64,000 bases of DNA, taken from the sequence record PZ179882.1; one strand, 5' to 3'. Source of the stretch: a phage. This document shows, piece by piece, positions 15,693-60,982 of this stretch (position 1 is its first letter; each line of letters opens with the position of its first letter). The position numbers and the translations under genes are program-made. Under the pieces are notes generated by a model. That model did not search any database. It had not been told where the DNA came from and saw only the letters and a list, made by a program, of their open reading frames with translations.

Positions 15693-16118
15693 TTATTCCT
15701 TAAAGTGAGCTTTCAACATCTGATACAAGGACCATGCTTGTTCATTATTTTCAATAGTAACTTTCATTACCGGGAATTCTGTGAAATCTTCTATTTGTTC
15801 TTGCTCTTTCTCTTCCTGCTCTTGCTCTTCAGCTGCCTGGTATGGATTTTCAACTTCATCAAAGAATTCAGCTTCGCTAGTAGAAAGCCAAATAAAATCT
15901 TCATCCAAAATATCTTTACCGGAGGATAATGCCAATCTTCCAGTAGATGTCACAATTTTAGTAGGACGACCAAGATAGTCAATATCTATAACTTTAAAAG
16001 GTTCCATACCTAAACGTCGTGCATAAATTCCGTTTTCAGTATGATATTTAATAAATTTTTCTTGAGCTTGTTTATTTTTAAATTGATACCATTTATTAAC
16101 TTCAAATTTAATAGCCAT
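15693..16118 (-). CDS. goF: goF-like protein (141 aa, acidic Glu/Gln-rich segment)
   Basis: Same size and position (downstream of 39) as T4 goF; assignment by synteny only. Confidence 0.45.
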
Positions 16119-17626: not shown

Positions 17627-18127
17627 TTATCTCATTTCAATAAAATCTACGAGTTCAGCATGCGATTTGCGGAACATTACTTGGTGCCTGCCAATGATAA
17701 CTTGATCATCTGGAACTTCGTATACAGCGAGATAAAATCCTTTAGAAGATAATTCTTCCCGCTCTTCTCGTGTGAACCATCTCATCATATCATATTCACT
17801 AGCGAAAGCAAAATGATAAAGAGCTATAAACCATCCTGGAATATGATATTCTACTCCAACATAATCTTTCTTGAACTTAGTATTAATTACTATATTAGCG
17901 TTTTTAACTAATAGTTTATCTTCGTGTGGTAAAGGAATTCTTTTATTATTATCGCTATGATGCATAAAATTAGGTCTGTCATAACCTACGTGTAATAGCC
18001 ACTCTTCGCTCCATGAATCTATTATACTCCTGTACGGCGTTATTTGAACACAAAGATTTCGACGTATTGTTATAGCATCTTCACAATCAAGAATACTAAA
18101 CGATGATTCAACACGATAAATTTTCAT
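17627..18127 (-). CDS. Hypothetical protein, 166 aa
   Basis: Track ORF 17627..18166 begins at TTG; ATG 18125-18127 with GAGGA SD is downstream of promoter 18155-18184. Confidence 0.5.
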   Translation of the reverse strand: MKIYRVESSFSILDCEDAITIRRNLCVQITPYRSIIDSWSEEWLLHVGYDRPNFMHHSDNNKRIPLPHEDKLLVKNANIVINTKFKKDYVGVEYHIPGWFIALYHFAFASEYDMMRWFTREEREELSSKGFYLAVYEVPDDQVIIGRHQVMFRKSHAELVDFIEMR

Positions 18128-21781: not shown

Positions 21782-21811
21782 ACTATAACATTTTTACTTC
21801 AGCTTGTAAAC
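21782..21811 (-). promoter_or_regulatory. Early promoter upstream of srd-like gene
   Basis: GTTTAC 21811-21806, 18-nt spacer, TGtTATAGT. Confidence 0.5.
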
Positions 21812-21825
21812 AACTTTATGAAAAA

Positions 21826-25302: not shown

Positions 25303-25539
25303 TTAACCATCTATTGCTGTAGGTGTGAACATTGCAGCATTCTTAGTTTTCCAATCAGCTGCATCAGAAACTACAGTAGAATATGCTGCCTTTTCTGACG
25401 GAAAGATTTGATAATGAGAATCTGCGATACGATGCTCGTTAGAATAAATTTCAAACGGAACAGAAACTTCCATACCTTTAACTTCTTTGCCTTCACCCGC
25501 TGGATGAGTAAAGGTCTTGATATTAACGAAACCACCCAT
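25303..25539 (-). CDS. soc: Small outer capsid protein Soc
   Basis: 78 aa; VNIKTF...HYQIFPSEKAAYSTV matches remembered T4 Soc core; terminator hairpin downstream. Confidence 0.8.
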   Translation of the reverse strand: MGGFVNIKTFTHPAGEGKEVKGMEVSVPFEIYSNEHRIADSHYQIFPSEKAAYSTVVSDAADWKTKNAAMFTPTAIDG

Positions 25540-25747: not shown

Positions 25748-25951
25748 TCATTTTGAATGCTCTATAATTAATTTTAAGGCTTCTTCACTGACAAAAATTT
25801 CATCAGGACCTTCTTCTACAACCCAATCAACCACACGAAGCTGATTAGATAAGAGCTCACATACGAGCTCTTTGTCATAATTTTTAAATAGCTGGTCAAT
25901 ACGTTTCTTACGGGCTTTCTTAAGCTGGCGTTTATTTAAACGAGTCATCAA
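25748..25951 (-). CDS. Hypothetical basic protein, 67 aa
   Basis: ORF track; start overlaps 56 stop. Confidence 0.45.
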   Translation of the reverse strand: MMTRLNKRQLKKARKKRIDQLFKNYDKELVCELLSNQLRVVDWVVEEGPDEIFVSEEALKLIIEHSK

Positions 25952-26466
25952 TAACCTCGGTCTTGACGAGCGAAGTTTTCAGCATTTTTCAGATAATAAA
26001 GTTTAAAGATTTCTTCAGCCGTAAGACCGAGACCTTGGAACATATTAAGAACGAAATGAAGAATATCAATCATTTCAAATTTAATTTCCAACTGGTCTTG
26101 TGGAGACAAATCAGTAATTAGAGTTTCACGGCGTTCACCGTGTTGAGCTTTCCAAGGCTTCCATACAGCAGATGCATCTTTTTCACCATTGCTCATACCG
26201 CCAAGAGATGTCAGAAGTTCACGGAATTCATCGTCAATATAATCTTTCTGATTACGTAGCCAATCAACAACTTCACCTGCAGTAGCCAAATCATCAGGAT
26301 GACGGTTATATTCAGGTTTATCTTTAGCTAAACGAACCTGTAAAGATTTCTGCATATCAAGCATAACCTGCAGCGGGTCTTTTTCATCACCGAGAATATC
26401 CCAGTATTCGTTTTGAGCTTTATCAGCGCCTTCAATCAGTTGTGAACATTCATTAAAGTAAGCCAT
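25948..26466 (-). CDS. 56: dCTP pyrophosphatase gp56 (MazG-like)
   Basis: Track ORF begins at GTG 26557-26559; ATG at 26464-26466 gives 172 aa starting MAYFNECSQLIEG, close to T4 gp56 length (171). Confidence 0.85.
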   Translation of the reverse strand: MAYFNECSQLIEGADKAQNEYWDILGDEKDPLQVMLDMQKSLQVRLAKDKPEYNRHPDDLATAGEVVDWLRNQKDYIDDEFRELLTSLGGMSNGEKDASAVWKPWKAQHGERRETLITDLSPQDQLEIKFEMIDILHFVLNMFQGLGLTAEEIFKLYYLKNAENFARQDRGY

Positions 26467-26537: not shown

Positions 26538-26738
26538 ATGGTACAAAAATTAATGGCACTTGTTAATGCCATCAAAGGTAATAAGAAACGTATAGCTTTT
26601 ACTATTTCTGCTATGGTAGGAATTTTACTCTGGAACTTTATTTTATCACCAATTGCAATTGCGCATGGTGTTAATATTCCAGTAGTTACTCTTGATACAT
26701 TCGTAGATCTAGCATTTGCTTTAGTTGGGTTAATTTAA
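26538..26738 (+). CDS. Hypothetical small membrane protein, 66 aa, on opposite strand
   Basis: ATG 26538 preceded by TAAGGAGG at 26526-26533; two hydrophobic segments; lies in the 56-61 intergenic interval. Confidence 0.4.
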   Translation: MVQKLMALVNAIKGNKKRIAFTISAMVGILLWNFILSPIAIAHGVNIPVVTLDTFVDLAFALVGLI

Positions 26739-27763
26739 ATCTTGGCATATTTAGATAACCGCATTTTAGCCATTAACCCCTGGGCAATATTATTTTTCAT
26801 ATATTCCATAATTTGTTCAGGGGTTGCACCTTCCTTTCTAATCATATCATTAACATCTTTTGATTTCCAGGGAGATTTATCCCAAAACATAACCCTTTCT
26901 CCTGCATCAACTAATTTAGTCATTCGCTTGATAGTGTCAGGGTGACGAGGTTCATTATCTAAAACCCACACTCGTCTATCTTTAAATGGAACAACTTCTA
27001 GGTCTAATTGACCACCCGTAATAGCTATACCATTTTCAATAAAAAGTGAATCTATAGGTCCTTCTAGAACATATACATCGCCATCTTTAACTCGTTCGAC
27101 TCCATATATTTTTGTTGCCTCAGGATAAGCTTTGATGGTGATATATTTTTGAGGAGCATCTTTCTTTAATGCGCGTCCTTGAAAAGACTCAGCTTTTCCA
27201 TTAGCATTATAAATTGGAATAACAAGACGAGGCTCAGGTATTTCCTTTTTATATGTTCCTGGTGCTATGCTATTAACTAATTTAGGCCATTCAGTTGTAA
27301 ACCAAAGATATTTCCATTTATCCTTTGGAATGCAGCGAGCTTTTACGTATTTTATAATTGGATGGTCTTCCGCCAGTTTATCTAATCTAATGCATGACGG
27401 AAGAGATTTAATTATTTTCTTCTCAGGTTGTTTAGGAAGTTCTTTAGGTTTTTCTACTGGACGACTTTTACCTTTTTCTTTTCTTATTTCAAAGATATAC
27501 TCACGATATAAATCAGGTTCAAACTCCTTTAAATATATTCCTATTGGTGCATGATAGTTACAGTTATAACAGTGAATATTTCCTTCATTATTATCACCAT
27601 AATACCATCCACGGGCTTTATTTTGGTCGGTTTTTGAATCTCCACAAACAGGACATCTAAACCGTAATTTAAAAGTTGAACTATTATTTACTTGTGCGAA
27701 TTTAGGTAAATGAGCTAGCGCACGATATGCAAACTCATTATCAATCCAAGGTATTGATGACAT
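26735..27763 (-). CDS. 61: DNA primase gp61
   Basis: 342 aa as T4 gp61; N-terminal zinc finger CPVCGDS...CYNC; ATG verified 27761-27763. Confidence 0.92.
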   Translation of the reverse strand: MSSIPWIDNEFAYRALAHLPKFAQVNNSSTFKLRFRCPVCGDSKTDQNKARGWYYGDNNEGNIHCYNCNYHAPIGIYLKEFEPDLYREYIFEIRKEKGKSRPVEKPKELPKQPEKKIIKSLPSCIRLDKLAEDHPIIKYVKARCIPKDKWKYLWFTTEWPKLVNSIAPGTYKKEIPEPRLVIPIYNANGKAESFQGRALKKDAPQKYITIKAYPEATKIYGVERVKDGDVYVLEGPIDSLFIENGIAITGGQLDLEVVPFKDRRVWVLDNEPRHPDTIKRMTKLVDAGERVMFWDKSPWKSKDVNDMIRKEGATPEQIMEYMKNNIAQGLMAKMRLSKYAKI

Positions 27764-27765
27764 TT

Positions 27766-27930
27766 TTACTCTTCTTTTTCTTTAGATTCCTCTTTTTTCT
27801 TTTTAGGAATCTGTTCAGGACCTTTATTTACTACAGCGCCTGACGTTGTTCCAGTGGAGATATTTTCAGGATTACCACCTGAATCTCCAGCTACCATATC
27901 TTCTTTAATAAATTCTTTATATGTTTTCAT
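27766..27930 (-). CDS. Small hydrophilic protein, 54 aa, not in ORF track
   Basis: Hand translation MKTYKEFIKEDMVAGDSGGNPENISTGTTSGAVVNKGPEQIPKKKKEESKEKEE; ATG 27928-27930 with GAGG SD; stop abuts gene 61 start. Confidence 0.35.
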   Translation of the reverse strand: MKTYKEFIKEDMVAGDSGGNPENISTGTTSGAVVNKGPEQIPKKKKEESKEKEE

Positions 27931-27931
27931 A

Positions 27932-28288
27932 TTAACCTCTATTCATAAAAGCATTAAAAATTTGGTCATCAATCGATGGAATAGCAACCTTTTCGGCATC
28001 ATTTAGCAAATCATTAATTTCATCAGATAGCATAACGCATGTACCTTTATTTCCTGTAATTGTTACTGCGCAATTACGAACGTTTTCTTTATCAAATTTT
28101 AGGTTAATATTTTCGTAGTGAAAATCCTTTAATGCCGAATATATCTTTAAAATGAAATTGTCTTTTACTACAATAAAACCGACTTCACTGTTAAAACGCG
28201 GCTCATGAAAACTGTAATAAACCTTTTCATCTATAAAATCGTATGAAATTTTTTCCATTTTTAAATATGGAAATTCAGAACTATACAT
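27932..28288 (-). CDS. Hypothetical protein (61.1-like), 118 aa
   Basis: ORF track. Confidence 0.5.
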   Translation of the reverse strand: MYSSEFPYLKMEKISYDFIDEKVYYSFHEPRFNSEVGFIVVKDNFILKIYSALKDFHYENINLKFDKENVRNCAVTITGNKGTCVMLSDEINDLLNDAEKVAIPSIDDQIFNAFMNRG

Positions 28289-28300
28289 ATTAACCTCTAA

Positions 28301-28594
28301 TTATTCACCTACCACTTCAGCGATGATATTTTTATTATTGAAGTTTTTATCACAATACAGAACGTAATTATACTGCATTACACCACCAGACTTAAGCTGT
28401 TTTTGTACTTCAGCTTTCATTTCAGGGCGATCACGCTCAACGATATTCATAATATCTGCTTCAATCTGAGTTTCAACCTCAGTCTGATCTGCGGTCATAG
28501 ACCATTCACACAAATCTTTATCATAACCTGCCATAGCAGGCTGAGCAGCACAAGAAGCCAAAGCAAAAATTGCAGCAAAAACAAATTTTTTCAT
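28301..28594 (-). CDS. sp: Spackle periplasmic protein Sp (superinfection exclusion)
   Basis: 97 aa with cleavable signal peptide MKKFVFAAIFALASCAAQPAMA; matches remembered T4 Sp size and sequence. Confidence 0.7.
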   Translation of the reverse strand: MKKFVFAAIFALASCAAQPAMAGYDKDLCEWSMTADQTEVETQIEADIMNIVERDRPEMKAEVQKQLKSGGVMQYNYVLYCDKNFNNKNIIAEVVGE

Positions 28595-28651
28595 GATAAT
28601 CTCCTCAGTAGTTTATGTTTATATAATATCTCAATTTCCAACAAAAGTAAA

Positions 28652-28906
28652 CTATTTTATTTCCTCAAGTTCGTTAATCAATAAAAGTTCTCTGACGCTA
28701 AAAACAAAGAAAAATGTGTTCCCATCAACCAGAGCATGACCGCTAATAGAACACCCTCTGCGGAATTTAGAAACTTCACAATCTAGAACTGTAAAGGGTT
28801 TTAATCCTATGACTTTAGCTGTGCGTCTATTCAGTTCACAACCACTTGCGAATTTTTCCAAATCTTCTTCTGATTTAAACTGATATTCTCTATTAACTAG
28901 CATCAT
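28652..28906 (-). CDS. Hypothetical protein, 84 aa
   Basis: ORF track; downstream of promoter 28938-28967. Confidence 0.5.
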   Translation of the reverse strand: MMLVNREYQFKSEEDLEKFASGCELNRRTAKVIGLKPFTVLDCEVSKFRRGCSISGHALVDGNTFFFVFSVRELLLINELEEIK

Positions 28907-28924
28907 TTTCTTTTCTCCGCGATT

Positions 28925-28967
28925 AGCTGATAGAATTACTATAACACAACTCTATCAGCTTGTAAAC
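28925..28967 (-). promoter_or_regulatory. Early promoter with 10-bp inverted repeat straddling the -10
   Basis: GTTTAC 28967-28962, TATAGT 28943-28938; IR agctgataga (28925-28934) / tctatcagct (28951-28960). Confidence 0.55.
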
Positions 28968-28969
28968 TA

Positions 28970-29212
28970 CTATTTTACTAGCATCAATAACTGTTTCTCT
29001 AACTTGACGATTTTACGAAAGTATCTTTTGCATTGGCGAATCTGTCGCTTCGTAGGGCGCACAGCAAACTTAATAAATTCCACTCGACCAAATGGAGGAC
29101 TTTCTTCTGCTGGAATATCTAACACCAATTCCCACGTATCTGCAACAAGTGCTTTGAATTGAGTATTTTTCCTGACATTATACGGAGTAGGTTTAAATAA
29201 AACAATATGCAT
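28970..29212 (-). CDS. Hypothetical protein, ~80 aa
   Basis: Track ORF 28970..29254 trimmed to ATG 29210-29212 (GAGGA SD) so that it abuts the dmd stop instead of overlapping dmd by 40 nt. Confidence 0.45.
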   Translation of the reverse strand: MHIVLFKPTPYNVRKNTQFKALVADTWELVLDIPAEESPPFGRVEFIKFAVRPTKRQIRQCKRYFRKIVKLEKQLLMLVK

Positions 29213-29213
29213 A

Positions 29214-29396
29214 TTATCCTCGGCAATCCACTTCACATACTTTCTTGTCATCAATGAAAGCTTTAACTAATGCTTTATTAACTTCAGCATATTGAGTAGT
29301 AGCCCATTGAACGTCATCTTTCATCATTGTGATTTCTTTAGTAAACATGCTTTCATTCTTAAACCACCCCATAAAAACTACCTTTACCAATTCCAT
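29214..29396 (-). CDS. dmd: Dmd, antitoxin against host RnlA/LsoA RNases
   Basis: 60 aa, MELVKVVFMGWFKNESMFTKEI matches remembered T4 Dmd (gene 61.5), adjacent to gene 41; own early promoter upstream. Confidence 0.75.
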   Translation of the reverse strand: MELVKVVFMGWFKNESMFTKEITMMKDDVQWATTQYAEVNKALVKAFIDDKKVCEVDCRG

Positions 29397-29416
29397 AACA
29401 ATCTCCTCATTTAACC

Positions 29417-29455
29417 GACAAGACTACTATACCATAGTCTTGTCAGCTTGTAAAC
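29417..29455 (-). promoter_or_regulatory. Early promoter of dmd with 10-bp inverted repeat; -35 fused to gene 41 stop
   Basis: GTTTAC 29455-29450 (C shared with TAG stop of 41), TGgTATAGT 29434-29426; IR gacaagacta (29417-29426) / tagtcttgtc (29435-29444). Confidence 0.55.
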
Positions 29456-30882
29456 TAAAATTTTAATTCATTCGCTAAAGCATCTAACTGGGCTCGGGCT
29501 GATTCGTTTCTTTGATAGCGATTCTGCTCAGCCTGAATCTGCTGTGAACCTGCTACTTCGTTCACTTCAGTTGGAGTAGAATCTTGTTCAATTTCTACCC
29601 ATTTCTGATTTCCTTTTTGAACACCCATCAAAAACTTATTCCATTTATTCTTATCACCATATCGTGATTTGATTTGCTTAATTAGTTGTTGTTCAGCAGT
29701 TGCTAACTCCTCGGTTTCAATGACCGCAAGCATAAAATCGGCTGTTGCTGGAAGACCGGCAGATTCTGCAATATCGCTCATGTTAACATCAGAAGAATCC
29801 CAAGCTTGTTTACCAACCTGTGCTGCGGTCCAAAGAACAGTTTCAGTTTCAACAGCCAGAGCACGCAATTCCTCTGCGATGGCTTTAACAGTTGTGTAAC
29901 TATTTTCTGAATACACTCTGATACGGCAAGATTTACAAATACCAAGATAGTCGACAATAATGATTGTTGGAACAAAATTCTTCTTGAGCTTTAATTCGTT
30001 TAAAAGAGATCGAAATGTATTAGCGTCTGCTCCACCAGTAGGATATTGCTTAACGATTAAACGACCGAGAGTAGATTTCTCACGCCATTTTTCCATTTTT
30101 CCTTTATACTCAGCATAAGAAATATGCCCATCATCAATGTCATCAAGAGAAACATCAAGCATATTAGCGTCAATACGTTTAGCACAGACTTCTTCTGCCA
30201 TTTCCATGGAAATGTAAAGAACATTATGTCCGAGCTGCAAATAATCTGCTGCCAATGAACAAAGTCCTAATGATTTACCAACGTTAACACCAGCCATTAA
30301 AACGTTCAGTGTTCCTGTCTCAGCTCCGCCTTTAGTAATTTTATTTAGAATTTTGAGTTTAAATGGAACCTTACGAGCTTTATTCATATAAGATAGCCAG
30401 CGTGCTTCGTAGTCATCCATCCAATCATGACCAACGTAGTTATCAAATGAAATTGATAATGCTTGGCGCATGATGTCAGGAATAGCACCTACATCTGGCA
30501 TTTTCTTATTTCGTTTTTCCGGAGGAAGCTCAGCATTAGTTTGAATTTCGATTATTTTAGACGTAGCATTAAACATCGCCCTTTGTTGAACATATTTTTC
30601 TGTTTCTTTTACTAACCAACTGTGGTCTTCTGGAGAATCGGCTAGTTTTGAAATAAGTGTTTTTACACCAGAATATTCTGTTTCAGTAAATGAACTATTT
30701 TCTAATGCAACATTTAACGCATTAATAGATGGAACGCTATGGTACTCATTAACATGAGATTTAATTAATTTGAACGTATTTTTAGCTGGACCACTTTCAA
30801 AATATTCTGAATCCATATATGGCCAAACTTTTGAAAAATAAGCTTGATCAAATATGAGATGAGAAAGAATAATTTCTACCAC
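29455..30882 (-). CDS. 41: Replicative DNA helicase gp41 (DnaB-like)
   Basis: 475 aa as T4 gp41; MVEIILSHLIFDQAYFSKVWPYMDSEYF recognised; initiates at GTG 30880-30882 with AAGGAG SD. Confidence 0.92.
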   Translation of the reverse strand: MVEIILSHLIFDQAYFSKVWPYMDSEYFESGPAKNTFKLIKSHVNEYHSVPSINALNVALENSSFTETEYSGVKTLISKLADSPEDHSWLVKETEKYVQQRAMFNATSKIIEIQTNAELPPEKRNKKMPDVGAIPDIMRQALSISFDNYVGHDWMDDYEARWLSYMNKARKVPFKLKILNKITKGGAETGTLNVLMAGVNVGKSLGLCSLAADYLQLGHNVLYISMEMAEEVCAKRIDANMLDVSLDDIDDGHISYAEYKGKMEKWREKSTLGRLIVKQYPTGGADANTFRSLLNELKLKKNFVPTIIIVDYLGICKSCRIRVYSENSYTTVKAIAEELRALAVETETVLWTAAQVGKQAWDSSDVNMSDIAESAGLPATADFMLAVIETEELATAEQQLIKQIKSRYGDKNKWNKFLMGVQKGNQKWVEIEQDSTPTEVNEVAGSQQIQAEQNRYQRNESARAQLDALANELKF

Positions 30883-60262: not shown

Positions 60263-60982
60263 TTAGGATTCTTCTAAATGTCTTTTCTGAAAAGTTGATA
60301 CCATACTACGATACGGTTCATTTGGATACCCGTGTTTTATAGCTTCCTTTGTAAATTTTCTCCATCCATATTTAGTTTCTTTCCAAAGCTCGAATAATTC
60401 ATCTTCATATTGCCATATAGTTAAATGAGAACGCTTTGCAGCTTTAATTCCATTAATATGCTTTTCTTTTACTACAGGATTACTTAGTTTCTTTTTAATA
60501 ATATTACTAACTTTTCTAACAAAAACTGGGTCCTTATATCGTTGCGAAGTTTTTATTGAAGTGTTTAATTTAGCTTCCGGTGTGGATGTGACCTCTTTCA
60601 TCTTTTTCTTCATATGCTGTATATGATTAGGATTTTTCCATAAATTTATAGAATGCTTTTTGCATTTTATCCTAGTTTCATCTGCAACCTTTCCTCCTTC
60701 ACCTCCGTATGACAGGTTAACACAGTTTTTTCCATATTTCAATTTACCTGCCATGATATATAATATTTCAGCTTGTACCATTTTATCATAATTATCAAAA
60801 ACTTCTAAAACCGTTTTTGTTAATATGTGGTCATTTGACACTTTTACACGTTCTATATAATTTCCACTACCAACATACGAATCATTGATGTTATTAGTTA
60901 TATGTCGACCATAATAGTATTTCTTAATACCTGTCTTTAAATTTAATATTTCAGTTTTATAGATAGTAAAATATTTTTTCAT
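60263..60982 (-). CDS. Basic 239-aa protein, possible degenerate GIY-YIG/Seg-like homing endonuclease
   Basis: N-terminus TIYKTEILNLKTGIKKYYYGRH...YVGSG loosely resembles GIY...YIG; C-terminal Lys-rich repeats (KLSNPVVKEKHINGIKAAKRS) resemble NUMOD-type DNA-binding modules. Weak, motif-level only. Confidence 0.45.
   Translation of the reverse strand: MKKYFTIYKTEILNLKTGIKKYYYGRHITNNINDSYVGSGNYIERVKVSNDHILTKTVLEVFDNYDKMVQAEILYIMAGKLKYGKNCVNLSYGGEGGKVADETRIKCKKHSINLWKNPNHIQHMKKKMKEVTSTPEAKLNTSIKTSQRYKDPVFVRKVSNIIKKKLSNPVVKEKHINGIKAAKRSHLTIWQYEDELFELWKETKYGWRKFTKEAIKHGYPNEPYRSMVSTFQKRHLEES

Follow-up and report, generated by a model that had tools for sequence, protein, structure and literature searches.

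The interval 27766-29454 of the phage DNA analysed here (record PZ179882.1; the window, 64,000 nucleotides) is very probably the Tequatrovirus copy of the known T4 hyperplastic region between genes 41 and 61, and its six small genes, judging from sequence similarity, would be early genes acting in the first minutes of infection. This interval is exactly the space between gene 41 (29455-30882) and gene 61 (26735-27763), both on the minus strand, whose products are identical to T4 gp41 and gp61 at 471/475 and 337/342 residues, respectively. The sequence-only reading of this DNA had placed an anti-defence/exclusion island between primase 61 and helicase 41, and its coordinates proved exact (41 ends at 29455 and 61 starts at 27763). 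The island idea is right but already published: Srikant, Guegler & Laub 2022 (eLife 11:e79549; PMC9391042) stated that the T4 region "may be an anti-TA island", in which Dmd acts against RnlA, TifA against ToxN, and AdfA against DarT (PMC9391042). What the window holds is a common variant of this region with one extra gene and one swapped-in gene. The features are as follows.

29413-29454, minus strand: early promoter and hairpin of the dmd-tifA operon (promoter scan, inverted repeat, RNA fold)
29214-29396, minus strand: dmd (61.5), 60 aa (T4 identity, PF17587, PDB)
28970-29212, minus strand: tifA (61.4), 80 aa (T4 identity, PF23945, phrog_2375)
28925-28966, minus strand: second PeSL-type element (promoter scan, direct repeat, RNA fold)
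28652-28906, minus strand: 84-aa ORF, predicted paralog of the GoF N-terminal domain (BLASTP, phrog_2980, AF2)
28623-28651, minus strand: early promoter upstream of sp, no hairpin (promoter scan, 9/12)
28301-28594, minus strand: sp (61.3), Spackle, 97 aa (T4 identity, PF25676, PDB)
27932-28288, minus strand: T2-type gp61.2, 118 aa, at the adfA position (T2 identity, PF23813, hhalign)
27766-27930, minus strand: 61.1, 54 aa (T4 identity, phrog_1823)

Compared with dmd-tifA-sp-adfA-61.1 (61.5-61.1) of T4, the genes shared by the two phages have the same position between 41 and 61, the same strand, and the same order; Dmd is identical, while identity is 96-99% for TifA, Spackle, and gp61.1. In contrast to T4, an additional ORF of 84 aa, preceded by a PeSL promoter of its own, separates tifA from sp, the tail of TifA is rewritten, and a 118-aa paralog takes the place of the 208-aa AdfA. 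The slot had been called hyperplastic, in agreement with its gene content, which varies among T4, T2, P8, NBEco003, PP01, RB69, and SP18. Four further ORFs are indeed present beside dmd and sp, as had been noted, but not all of them are uncharacterised, since TifA is a studied ToxN inhibitor and another is AdfA-related. The statement that dmd-proximal ORFs of T4 counter other host toxins was also right, 61.4 being tifA (against ToxN) and 61.2 being adfA (against DarT) (PMC9391042). Homology searches of the small ORFs, the check proposed in that reading, recognised TifA, one AdfA relative, and a T4-absent ORF of the GoF family; alignment supported the identity of dmd, and its neighbours did not all have non-defence functions. 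PADLOC and NCBIfam gave no match for any of the six proteins, and an Rfam search across the window gave no RNA family match.

The best supported member is dmd, whose earlier assignment to 29214-29396 was borne out: the product is identical to T4 Dmd at 60/60 residues, matches PF17587 (E 1.6e-46, 156.9 bits against a cut-off of 27), and finds 'Antitoxin Dmd' (5HY3_B, E 1.8e-37) as well as 5I8J in the PDB. From this complete identity, it would be a direct protein inhibitor that binds and blocks the RnlA/LsoA endoribonuclease toxins. In T4, dmd is conditionally essential, being needed for growth on RnlAB+ hosts (PMC9391042). The gene directly follows gene 41 and has an early promoter of its own (29454-29426), a layout as in T4, in which Srikant et al. 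2022 located the early promoter of the operon upstream of dmd (PMC9391042) and the dmd/tifA gap is the same 1 nt. This promoter, which had been proposed at 29417-29455, was found as TTTACA-17-TGnTATAGT, with its -35 box TTTACA at 29454-29449 and a TG-extended -10 box TATAGT at 29431-29426 (10/12, the joint best score of the region). Given the near-identity to T4, an early promoter of the sigma-70 type, just downstream of gene 41, would drive dmd and tifA together, the tifA ATG lying 1 nt past the dmd stop and the two genes being co-operonic.

As in T4, tifA starts with the ATG at 29212 and not with an upstream TTG. Residues 1-74 of the product match T4 TifA at 73/74 positions, and profile matches were obtained with PF23945 DUF7279 (E 5e-20, 71.5 bits against a cut-off of 24.5) and phrog_2375 (E 3.5e-38), while a PDB sequence search found nothing. 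The protein departs from T4 TifA in its last six residues (75-80) and falls 5 aa short of its length (80 versus 85 aa), because a cassette junction, seen in the alignment with T4, falls in the tifA 3' end. CE1 and P8 have a TifA variant of 73 aa. The features important for the TifA mechanism, namely the Pro-Thr cap, the basic RNA-binding helix, and the loop with residue 41 (PMC10853763), are kept here as P53-T54, the basic C-terminal helix KRQIRQCKRYFRK, and F41, respectively. These data identify the protein, by its similarity to T4 TifA, as a predicted ToxN inhibitor and RNA-binding protein. The T2 and T6 homologs, which are >96% identical to T4 TifA, are active against ToxN (PMC10853763); F41 is the weaker TifA allele found in T4, which overcame plasmid-borne toxIN only after tifA amplification (PMC9391042, PMC10853763).

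The dmd promoter sits in a hairpin of 15 bp (29413-29448), its -10 box being enclosed, and the corresponding RNA fold (-21.7 kcal/mol, z -6.55) was matched in stability by none of 200 shuffles. A second promoter of the same form, TTTACA-17-TGnTATAGT (28966-28938; 10/12 with TG), is accompanied by a 14-bp hairpin at 28925-28960 (RNA fold -18.0 kcal/mol, z -4.23). The two elements form a 64-nt direct repeat (72% identity) whose stems have different sequences yet keep their pairing. Elements 29413-29454 and 28925-28966 are PeSL-type promoter/stem-loop elements, according to the definition of Comeau et al. 2014 (PMC4122927), who gave TTTACW-N17-TAYWAT as the PST/T4 pair promoter consensus. Like the PeSL cassettes described by Arbiol et al. 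2010 and Comeau et al. 2014, they combine a consensus promoter with a stable stem-loop whose stem varies between copies, and they flank an indel that separates close relatives within a hyperplastic region. Unlike those cassettes, the hairpins here enclose the -10 box, with no T-run after either stem and 0 terminator-like sites in a terminator scan, and the sp-proximal boundary promoter (TTTACT-17-TATTAT, 28623-28651; 9/12) has no stable hairpin (z 0.18). The element at 28925-28966, which is absent from T4, bounds the inserted cassette on its 5' side; the 3' boundary is the GTTTAC box of the sp promoter, where T4 identity resumes exactly at GTTTACTTTTG. In PP01, which has a further cassette of 65 aa, the same GTTTAC box bounds a second cassette. 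These boundaries suggest that the gene content of the slot may be shuffled via recombination at repeated early-promoter boxes, the PeSL mechanism.

The inserted cassette carries an 84-aa ORF (28652-28906) that is absent from both T4 and T2. Its product resembles GoF (BLASTP E 2e-8), with 29-32% identity across the whole GoF N-terminal domain, and matches phrog_2980 (E 3e-20). The AF2 model was confident (pLDDT 88) and showed an SH3/LSm-like barrel containing the five-stranded bent antiparallel beta-barrel that is the N-terminal fold of the GoF family. The fold neighbours of the model included MotB.1 as well as FeoA and IdeR, the latter two being the PDB neighbours reported for the GoF N-terminal domain (Kim et al. 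2025, PMC12152347). The 84-aa ORF thus shares with the GoF/MotB.1/Frd.2 family (PMC12152347) the span of the N-terminal domain, the barrel, and the PDB neighbours, but it ends at residue 84, the end of this domain, without the linker and C-terminal domain of GoF; furthermore, GoF D25 corresponds to Gly22. [quoted passage not shown] These data indicate that the 84-aa ORF encodes what is predicted to be a free-standing paralog of the SH3/LSm-like N-terminal domain of GoF. The cassette was found in ~71 phages and in a second genus.

It is extremely improbable that the ORF is not a real gene and that the inserted segment is only a regulatory promoter/hairpin cassette. The product has no match in Pfam, NCBIfam, or PADLOC, nor in a PDB sequence search; the ORF is left unannotated in some deposited records, and its stop falls slightly earlier in P8. 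Against this, homologs at 77-81% and 55-57% identity keep a length of 82-84 aa, the PHROG and GoF similarities are significant, the confident model has the expected SH3-like fold, and the ORF is equipped with a promoter of its own as well as a GGAG Shine-Dalgarno sequence. The 84-aa protein probably came in as a self-contained promoter-hairpin-ORF cassette. The LSm-like GoF/MotB.1/Frd.2 family has been tied to RNA metabolism and so far not to defence (PMC12152347), and neither a function nor a defence link has been demonstrated for wild-type GoF; the new protein would most likely act on RNA or on an RNA-handling protein.

At the position of adfA, the window encodes a 118-aa protein that is 94% identical to T2 gp61.2. 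It matches PF23813 AdfA with 34.4 bits (cut-off 27) over profile positions 115-211 of 211, and database relatives of the short protein are precomputed as PF23813. When it was compared with long AdfA by hhalign, residues 109-208 of AdfA were aligned with a probability of 98.1% (E 1e-13), covering the DarT1-specificity segment (PF23813; LeRoux et al. 2022). The last 14 aa are identical to the T4 AdfA tail (shared ending SIDDQIFNAFMNRG), whereas the rest is only about 35-36% identical to the AdfA C-terminal half, and the N-terminal ~105 AdfA residues are missing from what is in AdfA an architecture of ~208-212 aa. An exhaustive phmmer search with the protein against 1.84 billion representatives found three real clusters only and did not reach full-length AdfA at E 1e-3, the link to AdfA being one made by profile methods only. 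Single-sequence word-index homolog searches gave 5 near-identical clusters each. The PDB sequence search found nothing for the 118-aa protein, and its AF2 model, built from only 6 eligible homologs, had a pLDDT of 54, too poor for a fold search, and therefore no fold claim is made. Overall, profile comparison identifies this protein as a T2-type paralog of the AdfA C-terminal half. It is a paralog rather than an allele, since NBEco003 carries the short protein and long AdfA in tandem.

The same evidence bears on whether the gene is a decaying adfA remnant, that is, an N-terminally truncated pseudogene without a function of its own. The match to the C-terminal half only, the identical 14-aa C-terminus, and the 12-nt spacer upstream of the gene, TTAGAGGTTAAT, which resembles the adfA 3' end, would fit such a remnant, as would the scoring of T2 as without adfA by LeRoux and colleagues and the DarTG1 sensitivity of T2 lacking adfN. 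This explanation is nevertheless very unlikely: the low identity to the AdfA C-terminal half apart from the tail argues against a recent truncation, and the gene has its own N-terminal ~20-30 residues, Shine-Dalgarno sequence, and ATG. Moreover, the intact short gene occurs at >=90% identity in about 295 phage records, the family is conserved at 118-125 aa with 40-50%-identical relatives of 119-125 aa, and the short protein is found alongside full-length AdfA in NBEco003, with a homolog also in SP18. Two other origins were considered and rejected. An internal duplication in AdfA, with the short protein representing one repeat, was dropped as unsupported, the hhalign probability being 13% (not significant) for the short protein against the AdfA N-terminal half and 1.7% for the N-terminal against the C-terminal half; the two halves have a common F-V-x-V-K-D/N-N-x-I motif and a BLASTP E of 0.008. 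A simple microhomology deletion of adfA from an ancestor with adfA and the short gene in tandem was rejected as well, the junction being unlike a clean TGAATA-mediated deletion.

As an intact paralog, the 118-aa protein would be a single-domain relative of the AdfA half that carries the DarT-specificity residue. The RB69 R164H substitution marks the AdfA residue enabling DarT1 binding/specificity (LeRoux et al. 2022), a position that is His in T4, Arg in RB69, and Asn in NBEco003. In contrast to the His or Arg of AdfA, the equivalent residue here is Cys73, invariant in the short family, the register being probable in an alignment of ~36% identity. Because T2 without adfN is DarTG1-sensitive despite its 94%-identical short gp61.2, the short protein fails to neutralise that DarT1 when expressed natively in T2, and an anti-DarT activity is somewhat doubtful. 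Most likely, the protein would bind a host toxin or enzyme stoichiometrically, the target being something else than the E. coli DarT1 examined to date.

The assignment of Spackle to 28301-28594 also stood. This protein is identical to T4 Spackle at 94/97 residues over its full length, including the N-terminal signal sequence, and matches PF25676 (E 4.8e-45, 152.5 bits) and the PDB entries 6X6O (E 6e-61), 6XC0/6XC1, and 7CN6/7CN7. Spackle inhibits the gp5 tail-lysozyme and targets other phages, not host immunity (PMC7677548). With such near-identity to T4, a further early promoter would drive sp, and Spackle would be exported to the periplasm, where it probably inhibits the gp5 lysozyme of superinfecting T-even phages, resulting in superinfection exclusion. 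The last gene, 61.1, begins 1 nt after the 61.2 stop, just upstream of gene 61, and encodes a hydrophilic protein (52/54 identical to T4; phrog_1823, E 7e-34) for which Pfam, NCBIfam, and PADLOC gave no match and a literature search found nothing. Its 40-aa core is invariant across three genera, making it far more conserved than the other members, and this conservation appears to suit a housekeeping function more than one in an arms race.

This functional mixture raises the question of whether "island" over-reads a recombination-prone dumping ground of unrelated early accessory genes, clustered by a PeSL/promoter hot spot. Spackle acting on other phages, an 84-aa ORF from an RNA-metabolism-linked family seated elsewhere in the genome, a highly conserved gp61.1 beside the primase gene, and cassette boundaries that coincide with promoter boxes are all consistent with this explanation, as is RB69, which also keeps imm and imm.1 in the 41-61 slot. 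We regard it as rather unlikely, however, since T4 has three independent inhibitors of three TA toxins (Dmd, TifA, and AdfA) within a 1.7-kb slot, which is unlikely to be an accident, and dmd and tifA share an operon.

Taking the region as a copy of the T4 island, it is tentatively possible that one or both of the non-T4 genes encode an uncharacterised counter-defence factor, in which case the specificities of the anti-TA island would exceed the three known. The 118-aa protein with its invariant Cys could be a single-domain inhibitor of a different DarT, another ADP-ribosyltransferase, or another toxin, while the 84-aa GoF-type barrel could, by analogy with TifA, bind RNA and inhibit an RNase-type defence. 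This locus, a textbook example of clustered counter-defence genes, has been explored by experiment before in T4, T2, T6, and RB69, and the window brings no new kind of system. Both the short paralog of the AdfA C-terminal half, carried by phages that the literature scores as having no adfA, and the GoF-type cassette are cheap candidates for anti-defence screens, and the promoter-box boundaries illustrate how such genes may be swapped between T-even phages.

Both non-T4 variants recur in many sequenced phages. T2 (LC348380) has the short gp61.2 in place of AdfA together with dmd, 61.4, sp, and 61.1, but lacks the 84-aa cassette; its short gene is annotated with Met11 as the start, owing to a difference in the region of the first ATG. 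In vB_EcoM_CE1 (ON229909), vB_vPM_PD112, SH7, and ZCEC14, the 1.8-kb interval aligned gap-free at 96.6-97.6% identity, with point differences only. The six genes recur in unchanged order in the CE1 annotation, and the genes are mostly annotated as hypothetical proteins in these four records.

The island at 27766-29454 (-) lies between genes 41 and 61, and every gene in this part of the window is carried on the minus strand. Of the two flanking genes, 41 (helicase, 29455-30882) encodes a product matching that of T4 at 471 of 475 residues and 61 (primase, 26735-27763) one matching at 337 of 342, and about 500 sequenced Tequatroviruses match the 1.8-kb interval at 90-99% nucleotide identity, indicating that the window comes from a T4-like coliphage rather than T4 itself. 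The interval contains the following six ORFs:

29214-29396 (-), dmd, 60 aa, 60/60 identical to T4
28970-29212 (-), 61.4/tifA, 80 aa, 73/74 identical to T4 over the first 74 residues
28652-28906 (-), extra ORF, 84 aa, absent from T4
28301-28594 (-), sp (Spackle), 97 aa, 94/97 identical to T4
27932-28288 (-), gene at the 61.2 position, 118 aa, T4 counterpart 208 aa
27766-27930 (-), 61.1, 54 aa, 52/54 identical to T4

As in T4, the true start of 61.4 lies 1 nt past the dmd stop, at the ATG at 29212; the upstream TTG chosen by the ORF finder is not used. No intrinsic terminators were predicted in a scan of the interval; thus, read-through from gene 41 across the island into gene 61 is possible.

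The sequence-only reading had named Dmd and Spackle, placed a promoter at 29417-29455 and noted that dmd-proximal ORFs of T4 include factors reported to act against further host toxin systems. Both protein identities were borne out, as Dmd matched Pfam PF17587 (E 1.6e-46) and chain 5HY3_B of the solved LsoA-Dmd complex, while Spackle matched PF25676 (E 4.8e-45) and PDB entries 6X6O, 6XC0, 6XC1, 7CN6 and 7CN7. The promoter was recovered as TTTACA-17-TGnTATAGT at 29454-29426 (10/12, extended -10), one of the two top-scoring sites in the region. The interpretation was also correct, and the same idea is already in print (Srikant, Guegler and Laub, eLife 2022, PMC9391042): 61.4 was renamed tifA, its product inhibits the type III toxin ToxN, dmd-tifA forms a single early operon, and, with the anti-DarT gene adfA (61.2; LeRoux et al.) counted in, the region was suggested as a possible 'anti-TA island'. 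According to Guegler et al., TifA needs a Pro-Thr-capped basic helix and its strength is tuned by residue 41; F41, P53-T54 and the basic helix are all retained in the window TifA. Spackle acts on a superinfecting phage by inhibiting its gp5 tail lysozyme (PMC7677548), and transposon sequencing recently reconfirmed that dmd is conditionally essential on RnlAB hosts. In phages vB_EcoM_P8 (locus L002, 1746-2006) and CE1 (locus L003, 1785-2006), tifA stops earlier than in the window and encodes 73 aa, owing in P8 to a CAG-to-TAG change; TifA tails of 73, 80 and 85 aa therefore exist. The P8 record annotates tifA in the wrong frame as 'DNA polymerase'.

The island is thus a published system in a configuration common to other sequenced phages. 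The CE1 annotation holds the same six genes, and CE1, PD112, SH7 and ZCEC14 each align with the interval from end to end as one block. Its remaining value probably lies in two recurrent occupants, a short AdfA-C paralog and a GoF-NTD-like ORF.

The first of these, the 118-aa protein (short gp61.2), shows 94% identity to T2 gp61.2, and its alignment to T4 AdfA is confined to residues 109-208 (~35% identity), the last 14 residues (SIDDQIFNAFMNRG) being identical. Its match to the Pfam AdfA profile, limited to positions 115-211, scores 34.4 bits against a gathering cut-off of 27, and when the short family was compared profile to profile with long AdfAs, the probability was 98.1% (E 1e-13). The position deciding DarT1 neutralisation by AdfA (R164H in RB69; His in T4) aligns with Cys73 of the short protein, which is invariant across the short family. 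In phage NBEco003 (locus L007, 2501-3491), a 210-aa AdfA with Asn at this position and a 118-aa gene occur in tandem, and the SP18 (Gaprivervirus) island encodes a 119-aa relative; the short gene is thus more than an adfA allele. The NBEco003 tandem is a natural test case for whether AdfA and its short paralog have distinct targets. The short gene was found at >=90% identity in ~295 phage records and long AdfA in 487, and beyond these phages the short family was represented by three clusters among 1.84 billion representatives. The LeRoux laboratory described T2 as 'naturally lacking an adfA homolog' and found that adfN deletion makes T2 DarTG1-sensitive, so the short protein at native expression fails to neutralise that DarT1. 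Since T4 AdfA in T4 likewise fails at native expression, a DarT-family target is still compatible with these data. Structure prediction for the 118-aa protein gave a poor model (pLDDT 54).

The second occupant, the 84-aa ORF, is a real gene, as judged by sequence comparison and structural modelling. Among its relatives, those with 77-81% and those with 55-57% identity are all 82-84 aa long, it is carried by ~71 records, and AF2 with a 23-sequence alignment gave a pLDDT of 88.1. The ORF matches phrog_2980 ('goF', E 3e-20) and T4 GoF (E 2e-8), and its alignment covers the N-terminal domain of GoF in full (29-32% identity). [quoted passage not shown] 2025, PMC12152347); the 84-aa ORF falls into exactly such a group, with the same neighbours. 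A full-length goF is also present in the window (15696-16118), so the island ORF is an additional paralog lacking the C-terminal domain.

This ORF was brought by an inserted cassette. In the alignment, the last 11 tifA codons of T4 and a short spacer are replaced by ~330 bp, starting inside the tifA 3' end and ending precisely at the sp promoter's -35 box (GTTTAC). The cassette also brings a second early promoter (28966-28938; 10/12, extended -10), which shares a 64-nt direct repeat with the dmd promoter (72% identity). Each copy has its -10 box enclosed by a long hairpin, whose stem measures 15 bp at the dmd promoter (-21.7 kcal/mol, z -6.6) and 14 bp at the second promoter (-18.0 kcal/mol, z -4.2); the stems are unlike in sequence, with pairing kept. 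This promoter, hairpin and ORF layout has the same anatomy as the PeSL (promoter-early stem-loop) cassettes, which Arbiol, Comeau and Krisch proposed to mediate the shuffling of modules within T4-type hyperplastic regions, and the consensus reported for the PST/T4 pair, TTTACW-N17-TAYWAT, is present in the window elements. PP01 (locus L009, 1145-1500) has a further cassette between the GoF-NTD-like ORF and sp; its 65-aa ORF has a poly-Gly/Glu tail at the end, with GTTTACTTTT promoter boxes on both flanks. The contents of T4, the window and PP01 thus indicate that the tifA-sp junction takes 0, 1 or 2 cassettes. A third PeSL-type box, TTGTTTACAAGCTGA, occurs at 21799-21813 (-) between modA-like and srd-like ORFs, with 1 mismatch to the two island copies. 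As for other genera, RB69 (locus L006, 255-3836) has four extra ORFs as well as the superinfection immunity genes imm and imm.1, which stand between tifA and sp, and SP18 (locus L008, 1569-4519) has five extra hypothetical ORFs, with a GoF-NTD-like gene directly after gene 41.

Given the near-identity to studied proteins, early sigma-70 transcription would yield Dmd, blocking RnlA/LsoA, and TifA, blocking ToxN as an RNA-protein complex, while a separate early promoter would yield Spackle, which would be exported to block the gp5 lysozyme of incoming T-even phages. The short AdfA-C paralog may be a stoichiometric binder whose target, a toxin or enzyme, differs from the tested DarT1; the GoF-NTD barrel may act on RNA or an RNA-handling protein, and gene content may turn over via recombination at the repeated promoter boxes.

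The last island product, gp61.1, encoded directly upstream of gene 61, had no family annotation in Pfam, PHROG, NCBIfam and PADLOC beyond PHROGs of unknown function. Despite the hyperplastic region, it is far more conserved than its neighbours, with a 40-residue core (EDMVAGDxGGxP...GTTxGxVVNKGPEQIPxKK) that is invariant in three Tevenvirinae genera, namely Tequatrovirus, Gaprivervirus and Mosigvirus. In several GenBank records gp61.1 is wrongly labelled 'major capsid protein'.

Beyond gene 61, T4 and T2 carry dam (DNA adenine methyltransferase) between genes 56 and 61; no dam homolog was found by tblastn across the whole 64-kb window, where gene 56 (25951-26466), only 74% identical to T4, adjoins gene 61 with only a 66-aa ORF (26538-26738, +) between them. 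This very hydrophobic ORF (GRAVY 1.25) is convergent with gene 61, overlaps its stop, and is preceded by a strong AAGGAGG Shine-Dalgarno and a AATAAATA late-promoter-like box. Conservation is 97% in T4 (17738-17935, a stretch without a CDS in the RefSeq record) and 54% in RB69 (ORF029w) and SP18. Elsewhere, identity to T4 Soc reaches only 45% in a soc-like ORF (25315-25533), and identity to T4 SegA/SegF is 25-26% in a GIY-YIG seg-like ORF (60287-60964); uvsX is only 90.5% identical to T4 beside a 100% identical gene 40, which indicates mosaicism.
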